Positions 2,254 to 19,770 of a stretch of DNA of 64,000 nt are shown here, in pieces. The stretch lies in NCBI RefSeq assembly GCF_024223415.1, contig NZ_CP100500.1; one strand, given 5' to 3'. Made by a program: the position numbers and the translations under genes. Source of the DNA: Escherichia coli (GTDB taxonomy: Bacteria > Pseudomonadota > Gammaproteobacteria > Enterobacterales > Enterobacteriaceae). Under the pieces are notes generated by a model. It saw nothing but the letters and a program-made list of their open reading frames with translations, was not told the origin of the DNA and made no database searches. The stretch's first letter is position 1. The number at the start of each line of letters is the position of its first letter.

Positions 2254-2715
2254 TTATTTCACTTCTTTAAAACCAGCGGCTTTCATCACCAGTTCCATTT
2301 GCGCCATAGTGATACCTTTTTTGGCATCTTCAGCAGAAACGTTGATTCCTGAAATACCCTGCAGGGCTTTAAAATCCACTTTTTCCATATCGATAGTCAC
2401 GTTTTCCTGCGCGTAGGTATCGGTATAGGTTAATTTTTCTTCAACACCCGCGATGTTTTTGTATTTGGCGCTTAACGGCTCAAGTGTCTTGGCAGCATCT
2501 TCTTTGGTGGTTGCACCAATGGAGGCAAATTGAATTTTGGTTTCAGAAGATTGCTTAAGCACCTTGTCACCTTTGTAGACATAGGTAATGGCAATTTCAG
2601 TGCCGTTCAGATTGGCGCTGAATTTCTTCGATTCTTCTTTGTCACCGCAGCCAGCAAGAGAGAAAACCAGAACAGATGCAACAACGAGGGAAAACAGCTT
2701 ATTGAAAGCCTTCAT
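2254..2715 (-). CDS. yehR: Lipoprotein YehR
   Basis: MKAFNKLFSLVVASVLVFSLAGC carries a lipobox. The size (153 aa) is K-12-like. Confidence 0.85.
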   Translation of the reverse strand: MKAFNKLFSLVVASVLVFSLAGCGDKEESKKFSANLNGTEIAITYVYKGDKVLKQSSETKIQFASIGATTKEDAAKTLEPLSAKYKNIAGVEEKLTYTDTYAQENVTIDMEKVDFKALQGISGINVSAEDAKKGITMAQMELVMKAAGFKEVK

Positions 2716-2839
2716 GTAAAACTCCATTTTATTTAATCAAGGAACTGGTGACTCTCACCAGGGGCTATATAGGATATGCCTAATACCGTGGCGTGAGCAG
2801 TCCGGAACTGGAGTAGAACTCTTAGTAAAAAGCACTATT

Positions 2840-4840
2840 TCATCCTTGTTGCTGAAGCATGGGGAATAATTGTTCGCAAAGCAAAACACCGTTATTCATT
2901 GCTTCTACCCGTGCCTCGCTTTCTGTATTACGAAATTGTCCCAACACATGTGCCAGCCGATAAAAACCCACCGCGGTGAGGTCATTCGCCAGCAACTCTG
3001 CCTGACCAATAGCACTCTGTTCCTGATAGCGCCAGCCGTTATGGAGCAGTTGAATAAGTAACGCCTGGCAGCGTATCAGCAACTGATGAGCAGTAGACGG
3101 CACAGGCAAAACGCTGGCAGAAGGTAGCGGTGCCACAGGCGTAGTTTCTGCGTCCAGCGCCCAGGCACGGGTTTTTGTCATCATCACCCGTGGTTCCAGT
3201 GTCAATTGCCCTTCAACAAAACTGACAAAGCCAGAAACCAGACACACGGGGTCGTCTGTTTGTTGCAAAAGCGCCGCCATGCGTTCAACGGCATAAGGTG
3301 CGCTGGCTGAGGCTGGTAATGATAACGTCAGCACATTATCTTCCCCTTCGCCGCTAATGACCTGCGCATCCAGCGTCTGGCGGCTGCTGTCCCAACCGAG
3401 CGAAATACACTCAGCGACCGGCAGAATAAATAAGTTATCGACCTGATTAAGAGGCCGTATGCAGGCGGGGGGACGCTGGCGTAAATATTCCCGCAAAGCC
3501 ACAATGCCCGGCTGGCGTAACGGCGCGCTCAACATTTGCCAGGCATCAGGCGACAGCGGCACAACGCTGCTTAAGCGGTTGCGGGTAGCTAACAGCAGCT
3601 CGCCATCGGCACTGCGTTTTGCTGCTTGTGAAACAATTTGCCCGCCCGCCAGTGCGCCAGCCTGAAAACTAAACAGCCGACGCGTAGCTGCCGGTGAGTT
3701 TTCCTGTTCACTTCGCGGCCAACTGCGCGAAAGGTGCAAAATACTGCCGGTGTCGGGATCGGTAAACCAGATGCGTAAACCATAATGCTCAATATCCTGC
3801 CAGCAACGCATACCTAAAGACACCAGCCGCAGATGATCAAGCTTTGCTTCTCCGGCAATGCCAGAGCCAACGACCGTGCGCCACGGCACAGGAGGAACTT
3901 CACCAATACTGTCGCGCCGGGCCATCTCTTGTGCGCAATTTAATCGACTGTTTAATGCCGCAAGCTGATGTAAGCATTCTCCGGCATTATAGTGGCTGGC
4001 GCGGGCGTGGAAGGCATCAACGCTGGCGCGCAGTTGCCGTAGCGATTCACTCACCCAGCGCCAGTTGCAGGTCTCTGCCGCCTGCAATGCGCGGTTGAAT
4101 GCTGCCTCGTAATGGATGAGCGGCTGGCTGATGCCGCCAAGCCATAATGTCTGGCTTAATTGCTGAACATATTGACGACACGCGTTGCCTTCTTCGCTGG
4201 CAAACGGATCGTCAGATGATGTGACGTGTTCGCTGCGCATCTGCCAGATTAAATGGTTAAATTCTGCTTGCTGCGCTTTGGCCTCGACGAAGGCCTGTAC
4301 CGCCAGTACGACATGTTCGCAAAGTGTGCCTTCAATACAATCACAACGGGCGAAACGAATACTGCTGCGGGAATAAAAACGCACATCGCTCATCGGTAAG
4401 CGGGCAGAGGGAATTTCACCCGGCGCACAGAACAACTCAATGGTGATGCCTTTAGCGACCAGCGCCTGTGCGCGTTTGCGGGTAGCATCGGGAAGGGTAG
4501 CCAGTTCTTCCAGCCAGATTGCCGGATCCCACTCTTCTTCTTTTTCCGTAGACTGAGTGGTGGCACAAAGTCGTTGATAACTTAACACCAGCATCACGCG
4601 ATGACGGCACATACCGTTGGCCCCGCAACTGCACTGAGCCTCTTTCAGTGCCTGGCCGTTCGCCAGCTGGGTACGGACACCGTCACTGAAGGTGGCGATT
4701 AAAGCGTCGTTCTCATGGCTGATCTCCGGGACGTTGCCATTTTCCAGTTCCTTAAGACTGCGCTTAACAAAACCGGCATTGCTTAACGCCGTCAGGGCCT
4801 GCGGTGTCAGTTCTAATAATTCCGGACGTAGTGAATTCAT
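2840..4840 (-). CDS. yehQ: YehQ, protein with two SWIM zinc fingers
   Basis: Two CxCx(n)CxH motifs are present (CSCGANGMCRH, CDCIEGTLCEH). The start was chosen at MNSLRPELL, whose ATG overlaps the yehP stop (ATGA, 4837-4840). Confidence 0.8.
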   Translation of the reverse strand: MNSLRPELLELTPQALTALSNAGFVKRSLKELENGNVPEISHENDALIATFSDGVRTQLANGQALKEAQCSCGANGMCRHRVMLVLSYQRLCATTQSTEKEEEWDPAIWLEELATLPDATRKRAQALVAKGITIELFCAPGEIPSARLPMSDVRFYSRSSIRFARCDCIEGTLCEHVVLAVQAFVEAKAQQAEFNHLIWQMRSEHVTSSDDPFASEEGNACRQYVQQLSQTLWLGGISQPLIHYEAAFNRALQAAETCNWRWVSESLRQLRASVDAFHARASHYNAGECLHQLAALNSRLNCAQEMARRDSIGEVPPVPWRTVVGSGIAGEAKLDHLRLVSLGMRCWQDIEHYGLRIWFTDPDTGSILHLSRSWPRSEQENSPAATRRLFSFQAGALAGGQIVSQAAKRSADGELLLATRNRLSSVVPLSPDAWQMLSAPLRQPGIVALREYLRQRPPACIRPLNQVDNLFILPVAECISLGWDSSRQTLDAQVISGEGEDNVLTLSLPASASAPYAVERMAALLQQTDDPVCLVSGFVSFVEGQLTLEPRVMMTKTRAWALDAETTPVAPLPSASVLPVPSTAHQLLIRCQALLIQLLHNGWRYQEQSAIGQAELLANDLTAVGFYRLAHVLGQFRNTESEARVEAMNNGVLLCEQLFPMLQQQG

Positions 4841-5973
4841 GACTGAAGATTCTCCGCAAGCCATGATGCCAGCTCGCCCGGCGTCATGGCGGCTATTTGT
4901 GCGCCGACATTAACCAGCGCCTGGGCCGTATCGCGGTCATAGCAAGGTGTTGCGGTGCTATCGAGCGCTGCCAGTCCCAGCACTTTGATGCCGCTCTGGA
5001 CACACTTTTTCACCTGATGCGTCAGTAATGATGATGAACCCCCTTCGTAAAAATCGCTCACGAGGATAATGACGCTTTTCGCTGGTTGTTCAATAAGTTG
5101 CCGACCATACTCCACGGCACTGGCGATATTGGTCCCGCCGCCCAACTGTACTTTCATTAATAACTCTACCGGATCGGCAACGTCTGCCGTGAGATCAACG
5201 ACGCTTGTGTCAAACGCCACCAGATGGGTACGAATGCCGGGTAACTGCCACAAACAGGCCGCCATCACCGCAGAGTGGATCACCGAATCGACCATCGATC
5301 CGCTTTGATCAACCAGTAAGACCAGTTGCCATTGTTCGCTTTGGCGTTTAATGCGGCTGTTAAAGCGGGGGGATTCGATATACAACTTGCCGTGTTGCGG
5401 GTGCCAGTGTTGCAGGTTGGCGCGCAGAGTACTTTTGAAATCAAAGTTTCGCGCCAGTGGAATAAATGAACGGCGACGGCGATCGCGGACACCAGAAAAA
5501 GCCTGACGAACTTCCTTTGCCAGTCGAGCCATAATTTCTTCAACAACCTGGCACACTATCCGGCGGGCGGCAGCCAGTACTTCGGGGTTCATCAGATGTT
5601 TGGTGTGCAAAACAGCGCGTAGCAGGCTTTCAGAAGGCTGCATACGTTCCAGCACGTCGAGATTCGTCACCACATCTTCAATGCCGTAGCGCAGCACGGC
5701 ATCGCTTTCCAGCCGCTCAATCACCTGCTGCGGAAACAGCGTGTGAATACTGTTGATCCACTCAGGGGTGGTGAGATTTGAGCCACCTAATCCACCGGAA
5801 CGTTCACCACGCTGGAGCCGTTCAGGATCGCGCCCATACAGCCACTCCAGCGCGTGGTCTATCTGCCGGGCGTTGTCATCCAGCCCACAAAGCGTCGTTT
5901 CTGCCGCTTCGCCAAGAATTAATCGCCAGCGTTGTAGCTCACGGGTGGTCAGAAGATCGTTCAGTTCAGACAT
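4837..5973 (-). CDS. yehP: YehP, von Willebrand factor A (VWA) domain protein
   Basis: MIDAS-like motif LLVDQSGSM. The start MSELNDLLTTREL gives 378 aa. There is an 8-nt overlap with the yehM stop (5966-5973). Confidence 0.85.
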   Translation of the reverse strand: MSELNDLLTTRELQRWRLILGEAAETTLCGLDDNARQIDHALEWLYGRDPERLQRGERSGGLGGSNLTTPEWINSIHTLFPQQVIERLESDAVLRYGIEDVVTNLDVLERMQPSESLLRAVLHTKHLMNPEVLAAARRIVCQVVEEIMARLAKEVRQAFSGVRDRRRRSFIPLARNFDFKSTLRANLQHWHPQHGKLYIESPRFNSRIKRQSEQWQLVLLVDQSGSMVDSVIHSAVMAACLWQLPGIRTHLVAFDTSVVDLTADVADPVELLMKVQLGGGTNIASAVEYGRQLIEQPAKSVIILVSDFYEGGSSSLLTHQVKKCVQSGIKVLGLAALDSTATPCYDRDTAQALVNVGAQIAAMTPGELASWLAENLQS

Positions 5974-8245
5974 GGAAAACTCCCCAGTTTTGCAGCGATG
6001 CCAGTGCCTGCTGTTCGAGTTGTTGATGATGTGCAATGGCCTGTGGTGGACAATGCAACGGCATTTGCAGCGCCGAAACGGGAAGTTGCGCCAGTTGATA
6101 ATGCTCAAGCACCTGATGCGCCAGCGTCCCGCGTTCTCGTGGTGGTAGCCAGGCCATCGCCGCGCGTAAATCGGGCAGGGCGTTAATAAAATCGGCTTCA
6201 CTCAGTTGATTTAAATGACTGCTGAAACCAGCGATAAATGCCGGCTGACAGGCCAGTTGATGGCGGGCCAGCGCCAGCAAACCGTGCAGCGCCTCACCAG
6301 ATTGTGCCGGGGATAACTGCGCCAGCATCGTCAGCGCCGCTTCGGCACTGGCGTTGGGATGTTCCAGACGCATTAGTGCGCCAAGAGCCGCGCCGCGATC
6401 CAGCGCCGGGGCATGAATTGCCTGACTGCGTCGCTCCAGTAAGGCTACCGCCGCAGAAAGAGAAACGCCGGGTAAATTAACGCCGCTATGTAGATCGCGC
6501 AGAATATGGCAAAGCGCTTGCCAGCTATGCAGGTGAGCGTGAAACTCCTTTTCATCCGGTCTGCCGTTAGATTCACACAGCCACAGCGTGCGATCGATAG
6601 TCGCGCATAACGTCGTTTGTAATATCTGCGCGCCTTGCATACCGCTAATTTCATCCAGCCGCCATAAGGCATAAAGCACTTCCAGCGCCTGGCCCATTTC
6701 GGCAAATTGATTTTCCTGGGCGATTAATAGTGTGAGTTGCTCCAGTAATTGTTGACTGAAGGACGCCAGACCCGCTAACGCCGCCTGGCTAAGACATGTG
6801 GTGATACTGCCGATTCCGCCCGCGTCCAGCATATCGGCTTCTAATTTATTGCGTGCGGCTTCCTGGAGTGTGGCACCAAAACAGGCGGCCTCAATCAATG
6901 CCGCATGCTGGCTAAGCGGGCGGGTTAATTTCCAGCGTTCTTCACCGTTGCCTGCAAGTGTCAGTGTACTTCCCTGCTGGCGTACAATCCCAGGGATCTC
7001 CAGTATTGCCAGCCGATGTAACACCTGACTTTGCGCCAGCCCATCGGGGGTAAAGCGATTTAAGGTAAGCTCCGCCGGAAGGGAGATTGCGGTACGTTCC
7101 AGTTCGCAGGTGACATCTTTTGGCAGAGGCGGTTGTGGCGTAGAAGGGGCAAGTTTACCGAATCCGTCACCCGCTAATGTGTCTATCAACGTTAGCAGAA
7201 TCGGATCGGTATCGGGATGAATAACGCCGCGATAGCTCCACGGCAACGGCGCGTTCAGGGCTTCTTTAATCAGCGAGCCTGCTATGGCATCCAGCCAGTC
7301 AGTGCGTAACGGTAGTGTATGACCGCGCAACTGTGCCAGCGCCATCGCATGCAGATGAGCGGCAGCCATATCCGCGGTAGAAGCGGGCAATTTGTGCTGG
7401 CGCAAACGGGTAAGGATAGTTTTTAGCAGTTGTTCACCGGCCTTCTGCAAGCCCCACTGCCAGCACCAGTTTTGCCATACCGGGGCAGGCATTCCTGAAA
7501 GGTATCCTGCCAGCACATCAAGGCGCTTTTCACTGTAGGGTGTGAGATAACAACCTGTAACGGCATCTGCCAGCGAGGGCAATTCTGGCTTGTTAATTTT
7601 CTGAGGGCATTCGCGCCACATCTTTGCCAGTGCCGGAGCGTGCCAGCCACCGCAGACAACTAACACGTCGCCATTATTTTGCTGCATCGCCCATCCAATC
7701 CAGCGGGCCATAAAGGCTTCGCGCTGACGATTGAGCGCATCGCCGGAGGCGTCGCCCCGCAGTTGGGCAAAATAGTGCGCCAGCGCAGAGGGTAATGCAG
7801 TTTGCTGGCTTTCATCTTCGAACAAGTGATCCCACAGGGTATCGCTGTTATCCATGCGGGTGGCACGCAGCAGTAAGGCCTGGCTTTCATCTTGCGTATC
7901 AGGCGAATCGTCCTCTTCTTCACTCTGCGCCCAGCAAGGCAAATCGATGAAGTAAGTTTGTGCCTGAATGCGACGTGCGGCTTGTAGCGCCTGCCACTCC
8001 GGCGAAAATTCAGCAAATGGCGTCCAGGCACCACGCCCGGGGGCTGCACCGTCCTGATACTGGCAATAACTGTAAATAGCTACCGGAAGCTGGTGGGCTA
8101 AAAACAGTTCGTCTACCCGGTCATTAAAATCAGCCGGGCCTTCAATCAACACGTATCGTGGCCGCTGGCTTTCGATTAACGATTTCACCAGCCGGGCGCA
8201 GGCCGGACTATGATGCCGGATGCCGACAATTAACGGCTCGCTCAT
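5966..8245 (-). CDS. yehM: YehM, large uncharacterised protein (DUF5682-like)
   Basis: The start MSEPLIVGIRHHSPACARL gives 759 aa as in K-12. It lies between the MoxR-like ATPase and VWA genes. Confidence 0.85.
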   Translation of the reverse strand: MSEPLIVGIRHHSPACARLVKSLIESQRPRYVLIEGPADFNDRVDELFLAHQLPVAIYSYCQYQDGAAPGRGAWTPFAEFSPEWQALQAARRIQAQTYFIDLPCWAQSEEEDDSPDTQDESQALLLRATRMDNSDTLWDHLFEDESQQTALPSALAHYFAQLRGDASGDALNRQREAFMARWIGWAMQQNNGDVLVVCGGWHAPALAKMWRECPQKINKPELPSLADAVTGCYLTPYSEKRLDVLAGYLSGMPAPVWQNWCWQWGLQKAGEQLLKTILTRLRQHKLPASTADMAAAHLHAMALAQLRGHTLPLRTDWLDAIAGSLIKEALNAPLPWSYRGVIHPDTDPILLTLIDTLAGDGFGKLAPSTPQPPLPKDVTCELERTAISLPAELTLNRFTPDGLAQSQVLHRLAILEIPGIVRQQGSTLTLAGNGEERWKLTRPLSQHAALIEAACFGATLQEAARNKLEADMLDAGGIGSITTCLSQAALAGLASFSQQLLEQLTLLIAQENQFAEMGQALEVLYALWRLDEISGMQGAQILQTTLCATIDRTLWLCESNGRPDEKEFHAHLHSWQALCHILRDLHSGVNLPGVSLSAAVALLERRSQAIHAPALDRGAALGALMRLEHPNASAEAALTMLAQLSPAQSGEALHGLLALARHQLACQPAFIAGFSSHLNQLSEADFINALPDLRAAMAWLPPRERGTLAHQVLEHYQLAQLPVSALQMPLHCPPQAIAHHQQLEQQALASLQNWGVFHV

Positions 8246-8255
8246 GCATCTTTCC

Positions 8256-9344
8256 TCACGGCAGGCGGTGGCGGGCTTGATAATAAGCCTGCCAGTGAGC
8301 TTCTTTATGTGTGGCGACACGCTGTTCGAAGTAACGGCGCAGACGCGCGCGATCTTCTTCGTTATCTTTGACGATGGTTCCGGCAATACATTCCACCAGG
8401 TCGGCAGGCTCCCCCGCGCGATTCGCTAAAAACCAGGCGCGGACGCCCACAGCATGGGCCACGTTCACGGCTTCAGCGGTGGACATAATCGCTGTCAGTG
8501 TATCCATTGACGTTTTCTTTTCGCCGTTGGCACGCAGATCGCGGAAGGTGCGGACCAGTAATTCCAGTACCGCGTCAGGCACTTTATGCGGAATACCGCT
8601 ATGGGCCAGCAAACGCGCCGAAGCACTGGCGACCAGTTCCAACTCCTGGGCGAAATCCATAATCGGAAAAACCGTTTCAAAATCGAAGCGACGCTTTAGC
8701 GCAGCACTCATTTCATTGACGCCGCGATCGCGGGTATTGGCAGTGGCAATAATATTAAAGCCTTCTCGCGCATAGAGCTGACTGGCTTCACCAGTGAGTT
8801 CCGGCACCGTCATCACCCTGTCAGAAAGCATACCTAACAGACAGTCCTGCACTTCCAGCGGTGTACGCGTTATCTCTTCGAAACGGACGATTTTGCCGTC
8901 GCGCATTCCCTGATAAAGCGGGGCAGGGACCAGCGCTTCCGTTGACGGACCATGATTGATAAGCAAGGCGTAGTTCCAGCCATACTTGATTTGATCTTCG
9001 GTGGTAGATGCCCCGCCCTGGATGGTTAACCCGGCATCGCCGCTAATAGCGGTTGCCAGTAATTCAGAAAGAAGAGATTTTGCGGTACCCGGTTCCCCCA
9101 CCAACATCAAACCGCGGCCGGTAGCAAGAGTGACTAACATACGTTCGACAGCGGAGGGGCTAATCACCACTTTACGGCTGATATTTTGCGCTTCGTCGCC
9201 AAGGATAAAAGCACGGGCCGCAGGCAAACTTAACTGCCAACCGGGCGGGCAAGGTGCGTTATCATTTTGTTTTAATTTTGCCAGTTCATCGGCGTATAAC
9301 ACAGCAGCAGGCGGACGCTGCAGATGATTATTCTGCGGTGACAT
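8256..9344 (-). CDS. yehL: YehL, MoxR-like AAA+ ATPase
   Basis: Walker A GEPGTAKS. The start MSPQNNHLQRPP gives 362 aa. Confidence 0.9.
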   Translation of the reverse strand: MSPQNNHLQRPPAAVLYADELAKLKQNDNAPCPPGWQLSLPAARAFILGDEAQNISRKVVISPSAVERMLVTLATGRGLMLVGEPGTAKSLLSELLATAISGDAGLTIQGGASTTEDQIKYGWNYALLINHGPSTEALVPAPLYQGMRDGKIVRFEEITRTPLEVQDCLLGMLSDRVMTVPELTGEASQLYAREGFNIIATANTRDRGVNEMSAALKRRFDFETVFPIMDFAQELELVASASARLLAHSGIPHKVPDAVLELLVRTFRDLRANGEKKTSMDTLTAIMSTAEAVNVAHAVGVRAWFLANRAGEPADLVECIAGTIVKDNEEDRARLRRYFEQRVATHKEAHWQAYYQARHRLP

Positions 9345-9454
9345 ATATTCATCCCTGAAATGTATTAATGAAATAAACGATATTTTACGCGCAATAAATG
9401 TTTGGCGCATTAGTTGTTTGAGCGAAAAATATCTGGAAAGCAGATCACAGTAAA

Positions 9455-9490
9455 TAAAAAAACCTGCTGGTGAGGCAGGTTCTTTTATTT
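9455..9490 (-). terminator. Rho-independent terminator downstream of yehK
   Basis: The aacctgc/gcaggtt stem is flanked by an A-run and a T-run. On the minus strand the hairpin is followed by TTTTTTT. Confidence 0.6.
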
Positions 9491-9650
9491 ACTATTTTCA
9501 GGCCTAACACCACAGCCTGTGCAACATCGTGTTCCAACGAACGAATTATAACCACGGCTGGACCCCGTTGCAATTAAGATAATGAGATTTATAATCCAGG
9601 CCATTGGGACGTTGCGCCGGATCGGACCAATTTGAATTATTTAGAGTATA

Positions 9651-9968
9651 TTATTCTATTTCTTGGTTGAATATATTCTGTAGTTCACGATTAAAAATTG
9701 CTATTACAGTTTCAGGTGATTCACCTCGTAATTTCCGCTCATCAATACACTCATCTCTTATATAAATCAACGCATCATTTATTAGCGGGTCAGCATCTTC
9801 TCGATCACGTTGATGAAATGTTGGACGTAGCCGGAATCGCTCCAGTCGATAGACGGAACCTGTAAATAATTCAGAGCATTTATGGATCTCAAGTCTGAAG
9901 GAAAACGGATCTTCAGGTACAGGGACCTCATAATCGTAAATAGCAACCAGCTCTTTTTGCACGATCAT
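9651..9968 (-). CDS. yehK: YehK, small uncharacterised protein
   Basis: 105-aa ORF in the K-12 position downstream of yehI. Confidence 0.8.
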   Translation of the reverse strand: MIVQKELVAIYDYEVPVPEDPFSFRLEIHKCSELFTGSVYRLERFRLRPTFHQRDREDADPLINDALIYIRDECIDERKLRGESPETVIAIFNRELQNIFNQEIE

Positions 9969-10028
9969 CGCTTTCCCCGCTGGTAAGTCGTGTTGATAAC
10001 GGGCAGTTGCATCACTGCCCGCTGTGTT

Positions 10029-13000
10029 TTAATGGAAAATGACGTCAGGTGCGCTTAACGCCTCACTCAAATCAAACACATCAAGTTCGGCAAAGGTGAC
10101 GGATTTATTGTCACGGTACACTCGAAGAGAACGGAAGCTCATTAGCGCTTTGCTATCAACATTGTAGTGGTTAAAACCGGGTGAAAACTTAAGGACCAGC
10201 CGGTACTCACCCAGGTTATAGACAAATGCGTCCTCATAGCCTGACTCCCAGCCTTTGTATCGCATTCCCATAAGTTGCCCAACGGTAGCGGATTTACCTT
10301 CCCAGCGAGTCAGGCTGTTACTGGTTGACTCGTCAGGTGTGAGCAGCACCGTGCGGCGCGACAACTGGCGAAAAGGCGGCATAATTTCGTAATCGGCAAA
10401 AAGCTGTGCAAATTCACTGCGCATTTCTGCTGTCATTTCTAACGGGTGGGCAATGCCAATCAGAGCGTCCGCAGGCAGGTCAATTGGCTCATCTTGCGCA
10501 TTGCAGAACTCCCCCTCTGCGGCCACACGAAAGGCTTTGAGTAAACAACGCGGTTCATTTGCCGGATAAACCCCCCATATTAATCGCTGGGTAACCAGAC
10601 GGGTAAAGGGATGATTAACAAACAGAGAATGAAAATCTGCCAGCGACCAGCGTCGGGTGGTACGTAGGGCCGTTTCAAGACGCGGGAGCAGGTTTTTGCT
10701 CACCTGAGTAGCATCTTTTTTTAGCCCTTTTAGTCGGGCCAGTGCCTCGGGCGCTTTCAGTTGATCGTCATCGGCGCGCAAACGGGGAACGCTTTTCTGG
10801 CGAACGTTTTGCTGATCAAAGATAACCGGGTTGAGATTTTCATCGAAGCGAACGGTAAACTGCCGGGGACCAAAATCAAAACTCAACGCCTGCGGATCAT
10901 CAAGGCCCAGGGTTGGGACTAATCTGTCCGCTAGCTCTTCCTGGCTTAGCCCGCGATTTTCTGCGACCACCTGAAGAAATTCCGCCGCGTTATCACGTAA
11001 GGGGCGGGATTTAGCCCGTTGCGATATATGATGCAGCTGTATCAGCGCCATATCATTATTCATCAGGGTAAGGATGTTCAGGCCGCTGACAGCACGGGCA
11101 GATTTGCCTTCTTGTGGCCAGGCGAGGATCTGTGTCGTCAGATCCCGTGCCGTGCTTTCGTCACCAAAGAGACTTAACGCCAGAAATGCCCAGTTGTCTT
11201 TTGCGGGGGCACCAGCTTGTTGCCACGCAGTGAAGAGATCCCAAGCAAAAGCTGCCAGCGTTTGTGGCTGGCAGAACGTTTTCAGTTGTTCCAGCCCGCT
11301 ATAAAAACGTCCCCCCTGGGTAAAGCGCAGCATTTCGCCGATAATTTCCAGAGCGTCATTGGTAACAGTTTGATTATTAGTGATAAGGCGCGGCCTGGAC
11401 CACATTTGCGGATGCCAGAAATCAGGGGCTTTTGGAATGCGTGCCGGGTAAATGTCCATTGGACCCTGTTTAAGCAACTGCTCCAGGGCAGACCATACAT
11501 CTGTACGCTGCCAGCGGTTTGCCACGGTTTGTAGCAATTCGCCATGTCCCTGTTCGTACAGTAAACGCAGGGCAAGTAATGCGGCTTCGCTATTATCGCT
11601 GGGTTTGGTAAAGACAAGAGGGATAAGTGCACTAGCCGTATGTTCCGGCCATTGTAAAATCCACTGGCGAGCCAGATCACGCTGCGCCGCGAAACGTCGC
11701 CAGACGTGGGCAACAGGCAGCGCCAGTTCTGTTGCGCCAAAATTTAAAATTAACGGAAATGTTTCTTTTGGACGATGTGAAAAAGCCAACAGCAGACCTG
11801 GTAGCGCATCCAATCCGAGGATACTGAGAAAATAGTCCTCACCCGCGAACAGATGCTTTTTCTCATTGATACGCAGCCAGAAGGTCAAAGCCATCTCACG
11901 CGGCAACTGTGCCAATAAATACAGGTTCCAGACACTCTTTTCCGGACGATAATGTGAGTAGTTGTCATTTTCCCATATGTTAATTAACGCTTCTATGTGA
12001 CCGCTGCGGAGCGCCTGTTCTGCTAATTGTGCTTCCGGGGAGTTCCAGCCATTCAGGATCTCTTCAACCCGCCCCTGGTAGTAATGCCACTGAACAAAGA
12101 GTGAATTGCGTGCAGCATCCAGTTTTCCGGGGAGTATATAATTCAGAAACAGCCATACATCATCCCCAAAACCCAGTTCCTGTAATACAACTCGTCCACT
12201 TTTTTGTTCCATGCGTTGCGCAAGAGATTCCGTGCTGAAATAACGGGCAGGCTCAGTGGCGGCAAGCCTCTCTTGTTCGCCTGGTTGCCAGTAAACTTGC
12301 GGAGTTAATTCGAGCGGTGCCAAATCAAGACGTGGAGCTGTCATTTTTTTCTTACTACGCCACGGTGGTGAAACGAGGATTTCTGGCAGATTGCTGTTAT
12401 CGGTGCCATCAATAACCGGTTTGGGCGGTGCCGATAAATAACTCTTCAGCACTGACTGGGGTTGAGTACTTAACCACGGCATCACTTCTGCTGCCAGTTG
12501 TGGCTGCGATGCCATCAGCGTTTGTAACAGCGCACGCCAGTATTCATCGCGTGCTTTTTGCTGTGCAGGCAGCTTTTTGTCTTCGATGATTGGATAACCA
12601 GGGCGGGCTGGTGGTTCTGTTAACGCCAGCAGTTCTGCCAGTGCGGCGAGCGTCGCATGGGGGAAGTTTTTATGGTATTTAGCTACACGTTGCAGGCTGG
12701 GTTTGTTTTTATCAGCCACCAGTAGCAAGGTGCGGATGACTTGCGGATGGTTAATTTGTACCAGCAGACTGCCGCAATCTTCTTTATGGGCATACATCGC
12801 GAGGCGCGGAATGGCTGCCAGTCCTTGTTCGCGCAAAAGGGCGGCGCAGGCCGCGTAGCCGAAGTGGTTTTCATGCGACATGTAGCTGGCTTCTCGATCG
12901 CTAAATATATCCTGGCTCCAGTAGTGTTCGAGTTTTCTCACCGCTGTGGGGTCATTAGCAACAACTTTTAACCACTCCTTAGAATGAAAATGAGTTCGCG

Positions 13001-13661
13001 GGCATTCAAGGCCTACCAACTCATTGGCTATTTCTGGTTTTTCCGGGAGGATCAGCGCAATAAAAGGGCGGCGAACTTTGGTTATTCCTGGTAGTGCGGC
13101 AATGAGTTTGTCGGCGCAACGCTGCCAGCAGCTTTCCTCTGCCAGAGAGAGATGCTTACGCAGTCGGAGATCGAATTCGTTATAGGTTTCTGAGCGATAA
13201 CCATAGCCATAATCCTCGTCCTGATACTGCAATGTCACTACCAGAGGATCACTCTCATAACACCGCGCAATAAACTGGCGTGCAATCACCACCTCAGTCG
13301 CATATTCCAGCCCCTCTTGTTGGACGATTTCGTCGAGCAACTGTTGGCTGTCATTTTGCGCGATACAGGCTAGCGCCGCCATTGTCCGGTCCGGGATTGA
13401 GGGTTTGTGTTCGCCGATCAAGTTGATGGCCTGCGTGATGGCGGACTGCCACTCCAGTGAAAAATTCTCATAACGCCAGACAATGTTTTTTTTCTTCTCA
13501 GCTTTTTGTAGCAATTCATCACCCAATGTCTGGATGAGACTTCCAGTGATAACGGACACTGGTTCGCCCGGCCAGCGACGATGACTGAGCGGCGTTTTGC
13601 CTTTTTTATATTTCAGTTCCAGTTGGGCGTTATCCGCCAGCCACGGTAATTCCTTGTCCAT
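10029..13661 (-). CDS. yehI: YehI, 1210-aa DUF4132-type protein (paralogue of YehH)
   Basis: Uninterrupted ORF with long collinear similarity to the adjacent YehH (e.g. RLRKHLSL.EES, LPEKPEIA, FGPRQFTV, LFADYE..PPFRQ). Confidence 0.9.
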   Translation of the reverse strand: MDKELPWLADNAQLELKYKKGKTPLSHRRWPGEPVSVITGSLIQTLGDELLQKAEKKKNIVWRYENFSLEWQSAITQAINLIGEHKPSIPDRTMAALACIAQNDSQQLLDEIVQQEGLEYATEVVIARQFIARCYESDPLVVTLQYQDEDYGYGYRSETYNEFDLRLRKHLSLAEESCWQRCADKLIAALPGITKVRRPFIALILPEKPEIANELVGLECPRTHFHSKEWLKVVANDPTAVRKLEHYWSQDIFSDREASYMSHENHFGYAACAALLREQGLAAIPRLAMYAHKEDCGSLLVQINHPQVIRTLLLVADKNKPSLQRVAKYHKNFPHATLAALAELLALTEPPARPGYPIIEDKKLPAQQKARDEYWRALLQTLMASQPQLAAEVMPWLSTQPQSVLKSYLSAPPKPVIDGTDNSNLPEILVSPPWRSKKKMTAPRLDLAPLELTPQVYWQPGEQERLAATEPARYFSTESLAQRMEQKSGRVVLQELGFGDDVWLFLNYILPGKLDAARNSLFVQWHYYQGRVEEILNGWNSPEAQLAEQALRSGHIEALINIWENDNYSHYRPEKSVWNLYLLAQLPREMALTFWLRINEKKHLFAGEDYFLSILGLDALPGLLLAFSHRPKETFPLILNFGATELALPVAHVWRRFAAQRDLARQWILQWPEHTASALIPLVFTKPSDNSEAALLALRLLYEQGHGELLQTVANRWQRTDVWSALEQLLKQGPMDIYPARIPKAPDFWHPQMWSRPRLITNNQTVTNDALEIIGEMLRFTQGGRFYSGLEQLKTFCQPQTLAAFAWDLFTAWQQAGAPAKDNWAFLALSLFGDESTARDLTTQILAWPQEGKSARAVSGLNILTLMNNDMALIQLHHISQRAKSRPLRDNAAEFLQVVAENRGLSQEELADRLVPTLGLDDPQALSFDFGPRQFTVRFDENLNPVIFDQQNVRQKSVPRLRADDDQLKAPEALARLKGLKKDATQVSKNLLPRLETALRTTRRWSLADFHSLFVNHPFTRLVTQRLIWGVYPANEPRCLLKAFRVAAEGEFCNAQDEPIDLPADALIGIAHPLEMTAEMRSEFAQLFADYEIMPPFRQLSRRTVLLTPDESTSNSLTRWEGKSATVGQLMGMRYKGWESGYEDAFVYNLGEYRLVLKFSPGFNHYNVDSKALMSFRSLRVYRDNKSVTFAELDVFDLSEALSAPDVIFH

Positions 13662-13670
13662 GCTCTTTCC

Positions 13671-16600
13671 TTATTCAAACAGGGCTTCAATATCGTTAAT
13701 TAGCTCGCTGGCGGTGATGGCATCGATTACGGAGAACTGCGCTTCCTGTGTTGAATTACTCCCCCAGCCATATCTTTCTGCTTTGCCTTCCCATAGCCAC
13801 AGCTTGCTTAAGAGCTGCTCAGCGCTGAGTTCGGCTGGCGACATGCCTACCGCAAAGCCTTCATCGATTTCCATGATTAACGACCAGCGACCCAAAGGTT
13901 TGATCATCCATCCGATCCAGCCTCCATCCTGTGGTTCGCCCTTTATCCAGCCTTTATTCGCCAGCCCCATGACCCGACCACTCGGGCATTTTCTGCCTGC
14001 CCAGCGGGTCAGTTCACTGGCATTGCGCTCGGCTTCTGTCAGGGCGTAGCTGTTACGGTCGATCTGGCGGAACGGTGGTAGCAGTTCGTAGTCGGCAAAA
14101 AGCTGACCAAAGGCGGCAGCATCCGTTGGTGATATTTCCAGAACGTGAGGAGTGCCGATAGAGATATCGCCTTCCGGCAGGGTGAAAAGATCATCGTCAG
14201 CGGTGCTGGAGCTGTTATCTTCTGCTACGCGAAAGCAAGCCAGTAGCTGGTTTTCGGCGCTATAAACGCCCCAAATCAGACGGCGGGTTAAGTGACGAAC
14301 CAGCGGATGCTCAACCAGGAAGAGCTGGAAGTTTTCCAGCGACCAGCGGCGGCGCAGGCACATGGCGGATTCCAGCCTTGCTACCTGCTGGGCGGCGATG
14401 GTACGCGCATCTTTTTTCAGCAATTTGTAGCGGTTAACCGCATCGTTCGCCCGCGTTTCATCATCGCTTTTGTTCGGTTTGGGCAGGTCTTTCAGGCGGC
14501 TGCCGGAAACATCACGCACAAACGGTTTTAAGGTTTCATCAAAGCTGACGGTGAACTGCCGTGGGCCAAAATCCAGCAGCAGCGAACCGTTATCATCCAG
14601 ACCGAGATCCGGTGCTAACCGATCTTCAAGCTCCGCCACCGTGAGTTCGCGGCTCTCGGCAATGTCGGCAATTTTTTCTTTTGCCCGCTCCTGTAATGCT
14701 TTGAATTTCAGTTTCTGGGCGATGCCGTTAAGCTGCATAAGGGCGATATCACTACCGATAGCAGCGAGAATATCCAACCCAACGGTGGCGCGTTTATGCT
14801 GGGATTCACCAGGCCAGGCGCGTATTAATGGCGTCAGTTTGCGGGCGGTGTCATCGTTACCGAGAACGCCTAACGCAGTGAACGCCCAACTCTCTTTCGA
14901 CGGCGCGCCAGCGGTCTGCCAGGCGGTAAACAGATCCCAGGCAAATCCCGCCAGTGAGTCGGCGGAACAGACGTCTTTCACCTGCAATAATCCCGGATAC
15001 AGAGCCTCTTCCTGAGGGAAGCGGAGCATTTCACCGAGGTGGAGGAGGGCGCTATCTGGCAGTGATTGGGCATTTGCTTTTAATACCGGGCGCGTCCAGA
15101 GCGATGGCTGATAAAAGGCCGGAAGAGTGGGGATTTTTGTCGGGTGATTATCTAAGGGATCGAGCGCAAGCAGAGCGTTCACCGCATCGGTTACTTCCGG
15201 CTGGTTATAACGTCGGGCGATTTCTTGCAGTAATGGCTGATGACCGTTTTCGGTAAGCATACGCAAGGCAGCGCGGGCGTTATCCTGGGCTTCACCGGCT
15301 TTGCCGAGCGCCGCAGGCAGCAGGCCGGTAAGGGCATGTTCCGGGTATTTCAACAGCCAGCTACGGGCGTTTTCGCGTAGCGTTTTCAGTTTGTTGAAGG
15401 CACGGGCGACGGCAGGAGCCAGCTCACTCGCTGCGAAGTAATTCGTGATGGGCAAGGCTTCTTGTGGATAGCGTGCAAGTGAGTTTACTAACCCAGGTAA
15501 CCCTTTGAGTCCAAAATGTAACATGGAGTATTCGGTATCGGTATGTGGAGATAGGGTAAGGGCATTCCATGCTTTTACTGCTTTCTCCAGCGGCAATGTT
15601 GTCAAAATCCCCAACTGCCAATAATGCCCGGTAGGTGAATGAAACACCTTAAATTCACTTAGTAAGGTTGAATAATCTTCATTTAGCCATGCCTCAACTA
15701 CCGCTTCGGGAGCTTTAATATATGTACCAGCGATCCGTCGTTGAAAACCCATCCTTGCCAACAGGTTGGTAGTACTTTCTTCATGGCTAACCGTGATGTG
15801 TTTTGAATACCAGATATATTTCGCCAAAAGTTGATTACTGATTTCTTCTGTCAGATAACAGATTGGCTCAATGCCTAATGGCGCTAAATCCAGCACCGGA
15901 ATCGGCGATTTTTTCTTTTTCGAAAGCCAGGGAGGGGAGACTACTACGGCTGGCAGTAGATCGGCGCTGGCATGGTTTGAGGGCTGTGTCAGTTGTTGCT
16001 GGCATGATTTCAGTACGGCAACTGCGGGTGTCGAGAGCCAGGGAATGACCTGTTCTGCCAGTGCTGGTTGTGAGATAAGCATTGTCATTAGCATAATGCG
16101 CCAACTGTTCTCTTCTTTTTGCCCAAGAAGTTCCGTCAGTGCCGCCATTGCTGCATGTGGGAACGCAGCAATGGCTTTCGTCATCCGATCGTGACAGCGT
16201 TTAGTTTGCCCGGCTACACGTATAAGCAGTGTCAATGCGAACGGATGATTGATATGACGCAACACATCGGCGCAGTAGTCACTTGCGGCATAGGGAGCAA
16301 ATCGGGGCAGGGCTGCAACACCTTGCTCCTGTAATACGGTGGCTGACCATATCGCACCACAATAGTAATCATCAAAAATGGCATATGGTTCGTGATATTT
16401 TTCTAATGAGGCAAGAATGTGCTCATCAGTCGCCACTATTTTTAACCACTCAAGCGAGGGTAATTTTTTTTGCCCCAGTAGACGCTGGGCAATTTCATGT
16501 GCAATTTCTGGTTTTTCGGGTAATAACAAAGCAATTAATGGTTGCCGCCATTCTGGAATATGTGGAATTGCTGCAATAAGTTTTTGTGCACATTTTTGCC

Positions 16601-17465
16601 AGAGAGACTCTTCCGTCAGTGATAAATGTTTACGTAGGCGTAATTCAAATCTGGAATATTGCTCCAAGTAGCTAGGTGCAATGCCAGACGGCAGAATAAT
16701 AATGACATTATTCGCATAATCCCATTCAATATCAATCTGTTGAAGGTGTGTTATTACATCAGTAGCATATTCCAGACCGCCTTCCTGGACGATCTGATCC
16801 ATAACATCCTCACGCACTTTATATCTTGTGCATTTCATTTCAAGTGCCGTGAGTACAGCCATTACTGGTGATGGTAACTGTGTTGTTTTCAGGCCGTCGA
16901 TCTGACTGATCGCCTGGGCGACGGTGTTTTGCCATTCTAAAGAACAGGCGCTGAAGTCAAATGTGGCTGTTTTATTATCCCGTTGCGACACACTACAGGC
17001 TAAGCGACGTAATTGGGTCAATTTGTCTGCTTGCTGAACAGGAACTCCGGGAAAGCGGCGATGACTTAACGTGGTGTGTACAACTTCGGGCGGAAAAACG
17101 ACAGCAATATCTTTCGCCAGCCACGGTAAAACAGCATCTGTATTTTTGTCAGGCGCACGGGTTTCTGCTACGAAAGAGGGTTGTTCCTGAATAATGGTGG
17201 ATAAGTCCGCTACCTTGAGAGAGCCCGTTACCGTTTGGGAAGGTTGCAAAGAATTATCCTTCGCTTGCTCCACATACCCCTTCTTCACCTTCTCCGCAAT
17301 CAGCTTAAGTTCCGCTTTTTCCGCTGCCGCAGCATCTGAAAAACTTTTTATCTGACTTTGCCCTTTGGTGCCAACTTTTCCCCAACTGATATGCAACTCG
17401 TTTCCCTGTTGCTCCACCGCCCAGAATTTATGTGATTTTTCGTCCTGATAGATAAAGTGTCTCAT
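13671..17465 (-). CDS. yehH: YehH (MolR), 1264-aa protein with an N-terminal WGR-like domain and a DUF4132-type body; intact here
   Basis: N-terminus MRHFIYQDEKSHKFWAVEQQGNELHISWGKVGTKGQ is WGR-like. It is a single ORF, whereas I recall K-12 molR being annotated as a split pseudogene. Confidence 0.85.
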   Translation of the reverse strand: MRHFIYQDEKSHKFWAVEQQGNELHISWGKVGTKGQSQIKSFSDAAAAEKAELKLIAEKVKKGYVEQAKDNSLQPSQTVTGSLKVADLSTIIQEQPSFVAETRAPDKNTDAVLPWLAKDIAVVFPPEVVHTTLSHRRFPGVPVQQADKLTQLRRLACSVSQRDNKTATFDFSACSLEWQNTVAQAISQIDGLKTTQLPSPVMAVLTALEMKCTRYKVREDVMDQIVQEGGLEYATDVITHLQQIDIEWDYANNVIIILPSGIAPSYLEQYSRFELRLRKHLSLTEESLWQKCAQKLIAAIPHIPEWRQPLIALLLPEKPEIAHEIAQRLLGQKKLPSLEWLKIVATDEHILASLEKYHEPYAIFDDYYCGAIWSATVLQEQGVAALPRFAPYAASDYCADVLRHINHPFALTLLIRVAGQTKRCHDRMTKAIAAFPHAAMAALTELLGQKEENSWRIMLMTMLISQPALAEQVIPWLSTPAVAVLKSCQQQLTQPSNHASADLLPAVVVSPPWLSKKKKSPIPVLDLAPLGIEPICYLTEEISNQLLAKYIWYSKHITVSHEESTTNLLARMGFQRRIAGTYIKAPEAVVEAWLNEDYSTLLSEFKVFHSPTGHYWQLGILTTLPLEKAVKAWNALTLSPHTDTEYSMLHFGLKGLPGLVNSLARYPQEALPITNYFAASELAPAVARAFNKLKTLRENARSWLLKYPEHALTGLLPAALGKAGEAQDNARAALRMLTENGHQPLLQEIARRYNQPEVTDAVNALLALDPLDNHPTKIPTLPAFYQPSLWTRPVLKANAQSLPDSALLHLGEMLRFPQEEALYPGLLQVKDVCSADSLAGFAWDLFTAWQTAGAPSKESWAFTALGVLGNDDTARKLTPLIRAWPGESQHKRATVGLDILAAIGSDIALMQLNGIAQKLKFKALQERAKEKIADIAESRELTVAELEDRLAPDLGLDDNGSLLLDFGPRQFTVSFDETLKPFVRDVSGSRLKDLPKPNKSDDETRANDAVNRYKLLKKDARTIAAQQVARLESAMCLRRRWSLENFQLFLVEHPLVRHLTRRLIWGVYSAENQLLACFRVAEDNSSSTADDDLFTLPEGDISIGTPHVLEISPTDAAAFGQLFADYELLPPFRQIDRNSYALTEAERNASELTRWAGRKCPSGRVMGLANKGWIKGEPQDGGWIGWMIKPLGRWSLIMEIDEGFAVGMSPAELSAEQLLSKLWLWEGKAERYGWGSNSTQEAQFSVIDAITASELINDIEALFE

Positions 17466-17605
17466 TCTGCATCCCTGTAATTTTATCCAGTTGAATGCAG
17501 ATGCTACCAGTATTTATGCGGGTTAGAGAGAGACAAAATCGCAAGAAAACAACTTTAGGAATTTATAAAGAAAAGGCGCTGTCGATGCAGCGCCTTGAAG
17601 GGGGA

Positions 17606-19639
17606 TTATTTCACCTGATGACCCGGTTTAGCACCAGCATCCGGGCTTAGCAGGAAGATATCTTTCCCGCCTGGACCGGCAGCCATCACCATGCCTTCGG
17701 AGATTCCAAAGCGCATTTTACGTGGTGCCAGGTTAGCCACCATAATGGTGTGACGACCAATCAGTGCCTGCGGATCCGGGTAGGCAGAACGAATACCGGA
17801 GAAGACATTGCGTTTTTCACCGCCGAGATCCAGTGTCAGGCGCAGCAGTTTGTCAGAACCTTCAACAAACTCTGCGTTTTCGATCAGCGCTACGCGCAGG
17901 TCAACTTTGGCGAAGTCGTCAAAGGTGATGGTTTCCTGAATCGGATCATCTGCCAGTGGGCCAGTAACTGGCGCGGCAGCTGCTTTCACTTCTTCTTTAG
18001 AGGCTTCCACCAGAGCTTCAACCTGTTTCATATCGATGCGGTTATACAGCGCCTTGAACGGATTCACTTTGTGGCCCAGCAGCGGTTGCTGGATACCATC
18101 CCAGGTCAGTTCCGTATTGAGGAAGGCTTCTGCACGCTCGGTCAGTTTCGGCAGTACCGGCTTCAGGTAAGTCATCAGCACGCGGAACAGGTTGATGCCC
18201 ATTGAGCAAATCGCCTGCAGGTCAGCATCGCGACCTTCCTGTTTTGCGACTACCCACGGAGCCTGTTCATCGACATAGCGGTTAGCCAGATCAGCCAGCG
18301 CCATGATTTCGCGCACAGCTTTACCAAATTCACGGCTTTCCCACGCTTCACCAATCACTTCAGCGGCATCAGTGAAGGTTTTGTACAACTGCGGGTCAGC
18401 CAGTTCGTTTGCCAGCACGCCGTCAAAACGTTTGTTGATAAAGCCCGCGTTACGGGAGGCCAGGTTAACCACTTTGTTAACGATATCGGCATTCACGCGC
18501 TGAACGAAATCCTCCAGGTTGAGATCGATATCATCAATGCGCGAAGAGAGTTTCGCAGTGTAGTAGTAACGCAGGCTGTCAGCGTCAAAATGATTCAGCC
18601 AGGTGCTGGCTTTAATAAAGGTGCCGCGAGACTTGGACATCTTCGCGCCGTTCACCGTCACATAGCCATGAACAAACAGGTTGGTCGGCTTGCGGAAGTT
18701 GCTGCCTTCCAGCATGGCAGGCCAGAACAGGCTGTGGAAGTAAACGATATCTTTACCGATGAAGTGGTACAGCTCGGCGGTGGAGTCTTTCTTCCAGTAT
18801 TCATCGAAGCTTACGCTGTCGCCGCGCTTGTCGCACAGATTCTTGAAAGAACCCATGTAGCCAATCGGTGCGTCCAGCCAGACGTAGAAATATTTGCCCG
18901 GCGCGTTCGGAATTTCAAAACCGAAGTAAGGGGCGTCGCGGGAGATATCCCACTGTTGCAGGCCAGATTCAAACCACTCCTGCATTTTATTTGCCACCTG
19001 CTCCTGCAACGCACCGCTGCGGGTCCATGCCTGCAACATTTCGCTGAAAGAGGGCAGATCAAAGAAGAAGTGTTCAGAATCACGCATTACCGGCGTAGCG
19101 CCAGAAACCACCGATTTCGGCTCGATCAATTCAGTCGGGCTGTAGGTCGCGCCGCAGACTTCGCAGTTATCGCCGTATTGATCCGGGGATTTACATTTCG
19201 GGCAGGTGCCTTTCACAAAACGGTCCGGCAGGAACATGCCTTTTTCCGGATCGTACAGCTGAGAGATGGTGCGGTTTTTAATAAAACCGTTTTCTTTCAG
19301 GCGAGAGTAGATAAGTTCTGACAACTGGCGGTTCTCTTCGCTGTGCGTCGAGTGATAGTTGTCATAGCTGATGTTAAAGCCTGCGAAATCAGTCTGATGC
19401 TCCTGACTCATTTCGCCAATCATCTGCTCCGGTGTGATACCAAGCTGCTGAGCTTTCAGCATGATCGGTGTACCGTGGGCATCGTCGGCGCAGATGAAGT
19501 TGACCTCGTGGCCGCGCATTCGCTGGTAACGGACCCAGACATCAGCCTGGATGTGCTCCAGCATATGGCCGAGGTGGATTGAGCCGTTAGCGTACGGCAG
19601 TGCGCACGTCACCAGAATTTTCTTCGCGACTTGAGTCAT
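17606..19639 (-). CDS. metG: Methionyl-tRNA synthetase
   Basis: [25 protein letters not shown] (HIGH motif) and KMSKS are both present. Product is 677 aa. Confidence 0.97.
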
Positions 19640-19770
19640 AGTAGGCATTACTTCTTAATAGTGAAAAGGGGTTAGATAGTACCAAATGGGAAAATGTTAA
19701 GTAAGTACTTCTCTATATTCTTCAGGTAAACTATCAGCTGATGGTTTATCTATACAAAAAAGGAGTCGGG

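Follow-up and report, generated by a model that had tools for sequence, protein, structure and literature searches.

We found that the yeh genes of Escherichia coli that encode two giant DUF4132 proteins (yehH, also called molR, and yehI) and the nearby genes yehL, yehM, yehP and yehQ are parts of one module of five components, whose order is conserved across at least five phyla. The genes were studied in a stretch of 64,000 nucleotides (nt) of E. coli DNA (NCBI RefSeq assembly GCF_024223415.1, contig NZ_CP100500.1), which we call the window. We propose that yehH/yehI and yehLMPQ together form a self-contained, ATP-driven system that responds to DNA damage or to genetic conflict, i.e., surveillance of phages or mobile elements, and that it is not a housekeeping system. 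We put the probability of this proposal at roughly 0.4. The new elements are the module and its breadth, a candidate hydrolase within it, a third lesion in strain K-12, and hypervariable, sensor-like giants with SOS control. At the level of annotation nothing is new: every RefSeq E. coli genome already has the genes of this locus annotated, and the YehL subfamily of MoxR proteins has been named since 2006 (as cited in PMC3893208). In the literature we found no functional study of the module; DUF5682, the family of YehM, is unmentioned in the searchable literature and DUF4132 is mentioned in four papers only.

Positions 2500-17800 of the window correspond to the E. coli chromosome between btsSR/yehS and metG (the metG–yeh–btsSR region) and are 99.9% identical to several clinical and animal isolates. 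All seven genes are on the minus strand and are translated without internal stops, taking as gene starts the RefSeq start codons of the closest record. The genes, with lengths in amino acids (aa), and the one signal between them are as follows.

13671-17465, minus strand: yehH (molR), an intact single open frame, 1264 aa
10029-13661, minus strand: yehI, giant paralogue of YehH, 1210 aa
9651-9968, minus strand: yehK, 105 aa
9451-9481, minus strand: terminator-like hairpin and T-run in the yehK–yehL interval, sequence aacctgcctcaccagcaggtttttttattt (a hairpin scan located 9461-9481)
8256-9344, minus strand: yehL, AAA+ ATPase of the MoxR family, type member of the YehL subfamily, 362 aa
5966-8245, minus strand: yehM, DUF5682 protein, 759 aa
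4837-5973, minus strand: yehP, CoxE-type VWA protein, 378 aa
2840-4840, minus strand: yehQ, SWIM protein, full length in the window, 666 aa

The initial annotation of this region described tandem giant paralogues of 1264 and 1210 aa upstream of yehLMPQ, and the coordinates bear this out. It also described the four yehLMPQ genes as translationally coupled. The ATGA overlap of the yehP stop and yehQ start (4837-4840) and the 8-nt overlap ATGTCTGA of the yehM stop and yehP start (5966-5973) are indeed present, but yehL and yehM do not overlap; they are separated by a 10-nt gap, which carries a GGAAAG ribosome-binding sequence. YehP is encoded two genes downstream of yehL, within one translationally coupled operon. 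Finally, the giants (with yehK) and yehLMPQ had been treated as two clusters that happen to lie side by side. In Escherichia they do look like separate transcription units, because a hairpin and T-run follow yehK. However, comparison with other lineages corrects this picture.

A scan for YehM relatives, using one genome per GTDB species, yielded at least 574 confirmed relatives. We profiled the open reading frames (ORFs) around the best 80 of these loci with flanks of 10 kb, for a total of 82 loci. The best 80 loci belong to Enterobacterales, Burkholderiales, the Xanthomonas/Lysobacter group, Moraxellaceae, Desulfuromonadaceae, Myxococcota, Acidobacteriota and many Actinomycetota. Homologues of YehL, YehP and YehQ are present in 80 of the 82 loci and DUF4132 giants in 71, and the order giant (one to three copies)-L-M-P-Q on one strand is almost always kept. 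Of the 59 loci from outside Escherichia whose flanks reach at least 4.5 kb on either side (from Proteobacteria, Myxococcota, Acidobacteriota and Actinomycetota), 55 have a DUF4132 ORF of at least 800 aa, and we therefore regard the giants and yehLMPQ as one module and not two clusters. The giant is usually encoded directly upstream of yehL and occasionally downstream of yehQ. The initial annotation had named a lack of co-conservation outside Enterobacteriaceae as a reason to abandon its view of these genes; the neighbourhoods instead extend over at least five phyla.

The giants of other phyla also indicate which of the two E. coli types is the older. Almost all ORFs containing a WGR domain in these loci are DUF4132 proteins (55 of 56), and the WGR–DUF4132 architecture is the commonest one beside LMPQ in other phyla. 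Because loci with a single giant normally have a WGR domain in it, the YehH type, which is lost in K-12, is the ancestral core component. Tandem duplications of giants recur, for example in Massilia, Glycomyces, Lentzea and Klebsiella.

Beyond these five components, no further conserved neighbour was found in the 76 non-Escherichia loci. The 99 flanking genes, which were collected from 38 diverse loci, are unrelated to one another and have transport, metabolic or regulatory roles. The genes yehK and yehR are limited to Escherichia, or to Escherichia and Klebsiella. YehK has no Pfam, NCBIfam or PADLOC match and no recognisable domain, and among the 82 loci yehK occurs only in the 5 from Escherichia or Shigella; since it is confined in this way, it probably does not belong to the core module. 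To judge from these sequence comparisons, yehK and the terminator between the two units are insertions specific to Escherichia.

The domain assignments of the core proteins also hold. Their failure under profile search was the other ground on which the initial annotation would have been given up, and every assignment passes Pfam above the curated cut-offs. Conservation of motifs was scored in 73-77 orthologues from many phyla. YehL matches AAA_5 (E 1.6e-34, 119.4 bits against a cut-off of 22), has the predicted Walker A motif GEPGTAKS at residues 83-90, and has in its Walker B acidic region two residues, E156/E157, that are invariant in 77 orthologues. Its nearest solved relatives by sequence are the AAA modules of Midasin (E 7e-10) and the MoxR structure 2r44. 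YehP matches VWA_CoxE over residues 151-372 (E 2.3e-72, 243.5 bits against a cut-off of 26.4) and has the expected MIDAS motif DQSGS at residues 222-226; in 77 orthologues D222 and S224 are 100% conserved and Q223 is 89% conserved. Orthologues of YehP are about 374-390 aa long. YehQ was said to have two SWIM zinc fingers, and both CxCx(n)CxH motifs are present, at residues 70-80 and 166-176. The first is conserved in 95-97% and the second in about 75% of 73 orthologues, and Pfam (SWIM, E 1.6e-07) reports only the first finger at its default threshold and the second at a relaxed threshold. The SWIM fingers at the N terminus of YehQ are followed by about 480 aa without a recognised domain, and a Pfam search at relaxed threshold with 24 YehQ orthologues gave SWIM only. 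Searches of YehM, YehQ and YehP against the sequences of solved structures gave no match. NCBIfam searches with the locus proteins gave only matches below threshold.

YehM had been recorded as an unknown protein of 759 aa. The length is correct. A DUF5682 match (E 2.4e-98) spans almost the whole protein, and the N-terminal part of YehM contains a domain resembling those of the TIKI superfamily, which the initial annotation missed. An AlphaFold2 model made with 60 homologues (mean predicted local distance difference test score, pLDDT, of 85.8; predicted template modelling score, pTM, of 0.79) begins with an alpha/beta domain of about 240 residues, which is followed by a small middle domain of mixed structure and a long helical-repeat C terminus similar to HEAT or MIF4G. 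In the model the N-terminal domain has the alpha/beta fold with a core of parallel beta strands that is typical of the superfamily. Across 33 YehM sequences, which represent at least five phyla, four motifs do not vary: G8-x-R10-H11-(H)-S-P-x-C, L-[IV]-E35-G-P-x-D, F-x-D101-L-P-x-W and G199-G200-x-H202-x-P. They come after strands beta-1, beta-2, beta-5 and beta-6 of the model, a pattern that is expected of a retained active site.

A published structural analysis places PMT, HopBA1, the Ere-like Bcr135, ChaN and RRSP together in one superfamily, TIKI, and defines for it a catalytic motif of two His and two Glu residues (PMC6254334). The His and Glu positions of YehM resemble this motif, although the residue that matches the first Glu is not acidic, and the comparison was made by position along the strands. 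In resemblance to Tiki, RRSP, EreB and HopBA1, YehM has a His after strand 1, a Glu after strand 2 and a GGxH after a later parallel strand. Unlike them, it falls below the Pfam thresholds, contains an inserted helical stretch of about 90 residues, is extended at its C terminus by a HEAT-like part of about 500 residues, and is encoded in a MoxR–VWA operon. Among the 60 YehM homologues, Pfam matches to superfamily members were all below threshold: seven to Cofac_haem_bdg (the ChaN family; best E 0.012), two to Erythro_esteras and one to TraB_PrgY_gumN. A profile of the N-terminal domain compared with PDB sequences gave only chance matches to designed TIM barrels, and a Foldseek search of full-length YehM against the PDB was dominated by helical repeats, with nothing at E <= 1e-3. 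On balance, the N-terminal domain of YehM probably adopts the TIKI/TraB/ChaN/erythromycin-esterase fold. Because of this TIKI-like fold and the invariant GxRH, E and GGxH motifs, we consider YehM a candidate hydrolase; that it is catalytically competent has slightly less than an even chance. We know of no TIKI superfamily member from a MoxR–VWA operon context.

The remaining component, the giant, shows a constant and a variable part. In YehH, the WGR domain (E 1.7e-18) is followed by a variable region, conserved helices similar to ARM or HEAT repeats, and a DUF4132 alpha/beta module (E 7e-50). The regions relevant to what follows are these.

17259-17450, minus strand: WGR domain of YehH (aa 6-69), Pfam PF05406, with a match to PDB chain 2ra8_A (E 2.3e-17)
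16596-17315, minus strand: hypervariable segment 1 of YehH (aa ~51-290), 36-84% identity to other alleles versus 96-100% elsewhere
15396-15887, minus strand: hypervariable cassette 2 of YehH (aa ~527-690), 27-57% identity to the common alleles P0179 and P0223
13947-14504, minus strand: DUF4132 domain of YehH (aa 988-1173), from Pfam

The initial annotation's view that the first paralogue bears a WGR domain and is a single open frame here is thus upheld by the Pfam match and the 1264-aa frame. YehI is 37% identical to YehH over about 1180 aa and lacks the WGR domain and linker. YehH accordingly has the architecture of the MolR family, in which WGR stands at the N terminus and DUF4132 at the C terminus, and YehI has DUF4132 only (aa 954-1138, E 2e-47). 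Giants with DUF4132 are numerous, with 5943 representatives at E <= 1e-3 in a library clustered at 50% identity. For most homologues, the alignment with YehH starts only at about residue 620; therefore, the C-terminal half of the giants is the constant part and the N-terminal half varies. Residues 900-1264 of YehH are predicted with a pLDDT of 93, and no informative relative of the DUF4132 end was found.

Within E. coli, the number of giant WGR/DUF4132 genes varies by lineage, with two or three in tandem (in our loci L083, at 13001-20575, and L084, at 13001-19808). The alleles of yehH are mosaic, with cassettes that are 27-60% identical, and outside cassette 2 the common alleles P0179 and P0223 share about 98% identity with the window protein. 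The window gene itself looks composite. Its promoter and first ~60 nt are of the paralogue-1 type (98-99% identity), and the 140 nt upstream of it are 98-99% identical in strain S14. The middle of the gene has 50-65% nucleotide identity to either paralogue, and the C-terminal third is of the paralogue-2 type (91-100% nucleotide identity). The window yehH thus appears, from its sequence, to join a body of the paralogue-2 type to a promoter and a 5′ end that come from paralogue 1. Protein identities between the window and S14 are as follows.

YehH: 74.9% (to the closest S14 paralogue, D2)
YehI: 91.7%, with a variable patch at aa ~400-550
YehQ: 95.4%
YehM: 96.4%
YehP: 98.1%
YehL: 98.9%
MetG (adjoining gene): 99.7%

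The hypervariability of the giant paralogues and the change in their copy number look like the evolution of genes engaged in conflict.

We compared the module with characterised pairs of a MoxR AAA+ ATPase and a VWA protein, namely CoxD–CoxE, RavA–ViaA, NorQ–NorD and CbbQ–CbbO. Like these, the module has the two genes close together, with an intact MIDAS in the VWA protein, and a similar mechanism would be expected, in which the MIDAS captures a peptide of a partner and ATP hydrolysis remodels that partner. Unlike these, it adds a DUF5682 protein, a SWIM protein and a giant DUF4132 protein as dedicated companions, and YehL forms a MoxR subfamily of its own. The resemblance raises the question of whether the module serves some housekeeping enzyme as its dedicated chaperone or maturation machine, in the style of the characterised pairs, a reading that would include the name "molybdate metabolism regulator" under which some databases list YehH. 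The very strong match of YehP to the CoxE-type VWA, the role of characterised MoxR proteins in the maturation of complexes and the fixed, core-like position of the locus in E. coli are all consistent with such a machine. However, the genes for CoxDE, NorQD and CbbQO adjoin those of their target enzymes, which in the CoxD/CoxE type are metalloenzymes, and no conserved client enzyme is encoded beside the yeh module in any phylum (76 loci). Hypervariable alleles and changes in copy number are also unexpected of a housekeeping chaperone. Moreover, K-12 lacks an intact YehH and a full-length YehQ, and we know of no housekeeping defect in K-12 that has been attributed to their loss. As for molybdate, no molybdenum genes are nearby, and we rejected the legacy name as an explanation; molybdenum genes were also unaffected in a study of the Deinococcus regulator DdrO, which is described below. 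A housekeeping chaperone is therefore quite improbable.

The initial annotation had likened the genes to MoxR–VWA conflict or stress systems proposed computationally. Its presumed source, Kaur, Burroughs, Iyer and Aravind 2020 (PMC7159879), describes four MoxR–vWA ternary conflict systems, with VMAP, iSTAND, FtsH or beta-propeller components, and does not mention SWIM, WGR, YehL or MolR. There is an analogy in architecture: a MoxR–vWA pair accompanied by extra large proteins, with a hydrolase as the likely output; many carriers with large genomes or multicellular life styles (actinomycetes and myxobacteria); and one diversifying component. The iSTAND type, in addition, has a CoxE-like N-terminal helical domain in its vWA protein (PMC7159879). 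The yeh module differs in having no VMAP, inactive STAND, FtsH or beta-propeller protein as third component, and no effector domain is fused to the C terminus of YehP. With the bpMoxR model YehL reaches 18.4 bits, which is less than the cut-off of 27, and PADLOC gave no match. Given the different third components and these two results, the conflict-system reading is an analogy and not a membership. A looser likeness exists with Midasin/Rea1 of eukaryotic ribosome assembly, which, like the YehL set, combines AAA_5-type ATPase rings, a MIDAS domain and large helical-repeat regions. In contrast to the yeh parts, which are separate proteins that nothing ties to ribosomes, Midasin unites six AAA modules in one polypeptide of about 5000 aa and acts on pre-ribosomes.

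As to regulation, one LexA box is positioned just upstream of yehH.

17475-17490, minus strand: LexA (SOS) box CTGGATAAAATTACAG, ending 10 nt upstream of the yehH ATG and overlapping the ribosome-binding region

The gene is listed, as molR, among LexA-regulated E. coli genes with a known SOS box (PMC6590174, Table 1). An SOS box in the sense of CTG-N10-CAG with an AT-rich spacer in a promoter region was found for yehH only. The pattern CTG-N10-CAG occurs 32 times in the whole window, versus 12.8 expected from dinucleotide-preserving shuffles (maximum 22); an AT-rich spacer beside a start codon is a feature of the match at 17475-17490 only. We do not interpret the excess as many LexA sites; the abundance of CTG and CAG codons is likely its simplest cause. 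The core operon is reported to be silenced by H-NS: mutants in hns/stpA show upregulation of yehL and yehM, and the intergenic region beside these genes is bound by H-NS (PMC3686432). In Deinococcus radiodurans, DR2173 (a WGR protein) and DRA0166 (a DUF4132 protein) are strongly de-repressed when DdrO, the repressor of the radiation response, is depleted.

These observations could indicate an SOS-induced machine for DNA repair or damage tolerance, in which breaks or DNA–protein adducts are recognised through WGR and SWIM and removed by the AAA+ ATPase and a protease, comparable to p97 and SPRTN/Wss1. Such a machine would fit the LexA box and SOS-regulon listing of yehH, the radiation response of the Deinococcus genes, the candidate hydrolase fold of YehM and a chromosomal, nearly universal locus in E. 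coli. It would also fit the WGR module, which is a reader of DNA breaks in PARP enzymes. On the other hand, the LexA box is on yehH only, and yehLMPQ is a unit of its own, silenced by H-NS. Neither a LexA-type nor an actinobacterial SOS box was found upstream of the orthologous DUF4132 and yehL genes, two weak matches in Variovorax aside, although the starts of these ORFs are uncertain. Because the examined orthologues have no LexA-type box, the SOS link may be lineage-specific, and the missing boxes count against repair. Extreme divergence within a species and exchange of cassettes are likewise unusual for repair proteins, and K-12 and O157:H7 tolerate the loss of the system. We consider a machine devoted to repair unlikely.

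The proposal that we prefer, a response to DNA damage or genetic conflict, can be stated as a mechanism. The WGR–DUF4132 giants would be sensors or scaffolds, in which a signal is read by the WGR domain together with the hypervariable region; this signal might be damaged or foreign nucleic acid or a protein of an invader. Their conserved C-terminal half, with ARM/HEAT repeats and DUF4132, would dock on the core machine. The MIDAS of YehP would capture an acidic peptide of a partner, and the YehL hexamer would remodel the complex with ATP, as in other MoxR–VWA pairs. This remodelling could switch on YehM as a hydrolase (a protease or esterase), and the SWIM fingers of YehQ might provide contacts to DNA or protein. 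In E. coli, the sensor gene would be held by LexA and freed in the SOS response, with the core operon silenced by H-NS. The conflict side of this proposal rests on how the giant paralogues evolve, on a modular architecture that is self-contained and on the type of enzyme fold, and not on membership in a known system. If the proposal is correct, the MoxR–VWA systems would gain a new architecture and bacterial WGR domains their first functional context. The module is present in nearly every E. coli genome, and YehM has relatives in at least 574 other species.

A narrower version of the proposal is that the module is an unrecognised, widespread immunity or surveillance system, with polymorphic WGR–DUF4132 giants as exchangeable sensors for nucleic acid that is foreign or damaged, the MoxR–VWA pair as an ATP-dependent licensing switch, YehM, as a TIKI-type hydrolase, as the effector and, in E. 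coli, arming by the SOS response. Such a system might have escaped discovery through the three lesions in K-12 and the H-NS silencing. We regard this version as tentative and rather unlikely.

Several results weigh against a role in damage or conflict. None of the seven locus proteins was matched in a PADLOC search (eight proteins, E <= 0.01). Serratia and beta-proteobacterial orthologues have no LexA-type box upstream. Some DUF4132 giants have no adjacent LMPQ operon. Defence genes are only occasional neighbours, with few of the 99 flanking genes matching MADS or AriA models. Of 72,556 plasmid records, 38 contain YehM, and most of these are megaplasmids, chromids or mislabelled chromosomes; a phage collection contained one weak match to YehM and none to YehH. 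The locus is at the same chromosomal site in 5425 of 5426 E. coli genomes and is not a variable island. Finally, inactivation of the genes in E. coli is frequent, as detailed below, which would also be expected of a dispensable gene set.

This decay begins with K-12. The annotation of K-12 MG1655 has a CDS called yehF (with WGR) followed by a yehH pseudogene, and a YehQ of 614 aa. Compared with the window, K-12 is 99.85% identical over 15,441 bases, and of the 23 differing positions three inactivate genes.

Window position 16642: K-12 yehH L275*, TTA to TGA, versus the intact yehH here
Near window position 14621: K-12 yehH insertion of one G (+1 frameshift), at about codon 948
Window position 2998: K-12 yehQ E615*, GAG to TAG, which removes the last 52 residues

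The first two lesions account for the fragmented K-12 molR that the initial annotation described. The yehH gene is intact in the window, as it said, but this is nothing unusual, as full-length YehH is the norm in E. coli, with clusters of 7215, 21639 and 927 member sequences. Its advice that an intact strain is a better experimental starting point than K-12 is sound, and the advantage is larger than was then apparent, because K-12 YehQ is also truncated. The lesions of K-12 and the silencing by H-NS could explain why these genes have given no phenotype in genetic screens of K-12, and this set of y-genes becomes experimentally tractable in natural isolates such as the strain of the window.

By exact 61-mer matching, 706 of 5426 complete genomes carry the L275* allele. 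Because clinical and animal isolates are among its carriers, it is a natural polymorphism. The E615* allele of yehQ is present in 348 of the 5426, mostly K-12-type laboratory strains. Elsewhere, the whole locus is degraded in Shigella flexneri, O157:H7 has three pseudogenes, strain XYEH3934 has a frameshift in yehI, and in sublineage L1a of ST131 a blaCTX-M-15 transposon is inserted in the DUF4132 region (PMC9334617). Judging by these differing lesions, inactivation has arisen independently and often in E. coli lineages.

The gene set might therefore be silenced and slowly decaying in E. coli, with no current function and kept by inertia. The silencing of yehLM by H-NS, the independent pseudogenes in K-12, O157:H7, Shigella and XYEH3934, the transposon insertion in ST131 and the spread of L275* to natural isolates would all suit this explanation. 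However, tens of thousands of sequences keep open the frames of 1264, 1210, 759 and 666 aa, the catalytic and metal-binding motifs are invariant across phyla, and the gene order and translational coupling are kept from Actinomycetota to E. coli. This preservation of frames, motifs and order points to purifying selection on the core and makes mere inertia very improbable.

We now note some occurrences of these families outside the complete chromosomal module. Two contigs, L085 (213-4169) and L086 (1426-4884), encode WGR/DUF4132 giants and have no MoxR, VWA, DUF5682 or SWIM gene in the 8.8-10 kb downstream. Because giants are found on such contigs, they constitute a wider family than the LMPQ core. 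The sole match in the phage collection is MT835988.1 ("Bacteriophage sp.", an unannotated sequence of 14 kb from human faeces), whose positions 11208-12770 encode a protein 27% identical to residues 1-515 of YehM (E 3e-27). We considered and rejected the idea that the module is a mobile defence element of plasmids or phages, as it is rare on the former and near-absent from the latter. Two 181-kb plasmid records from E. coli blood isolates, NZ_CP103756.1 and NZ_CP049079.2, contain yehM–yehP at 116495-118771 with 96% identity. To go by this stretch, the plasmids have apparently captured a piece of this chromosomal region; the 207 matches of the whole region to plasmids and the transposon insertion in ST131 may be connected with this capture.

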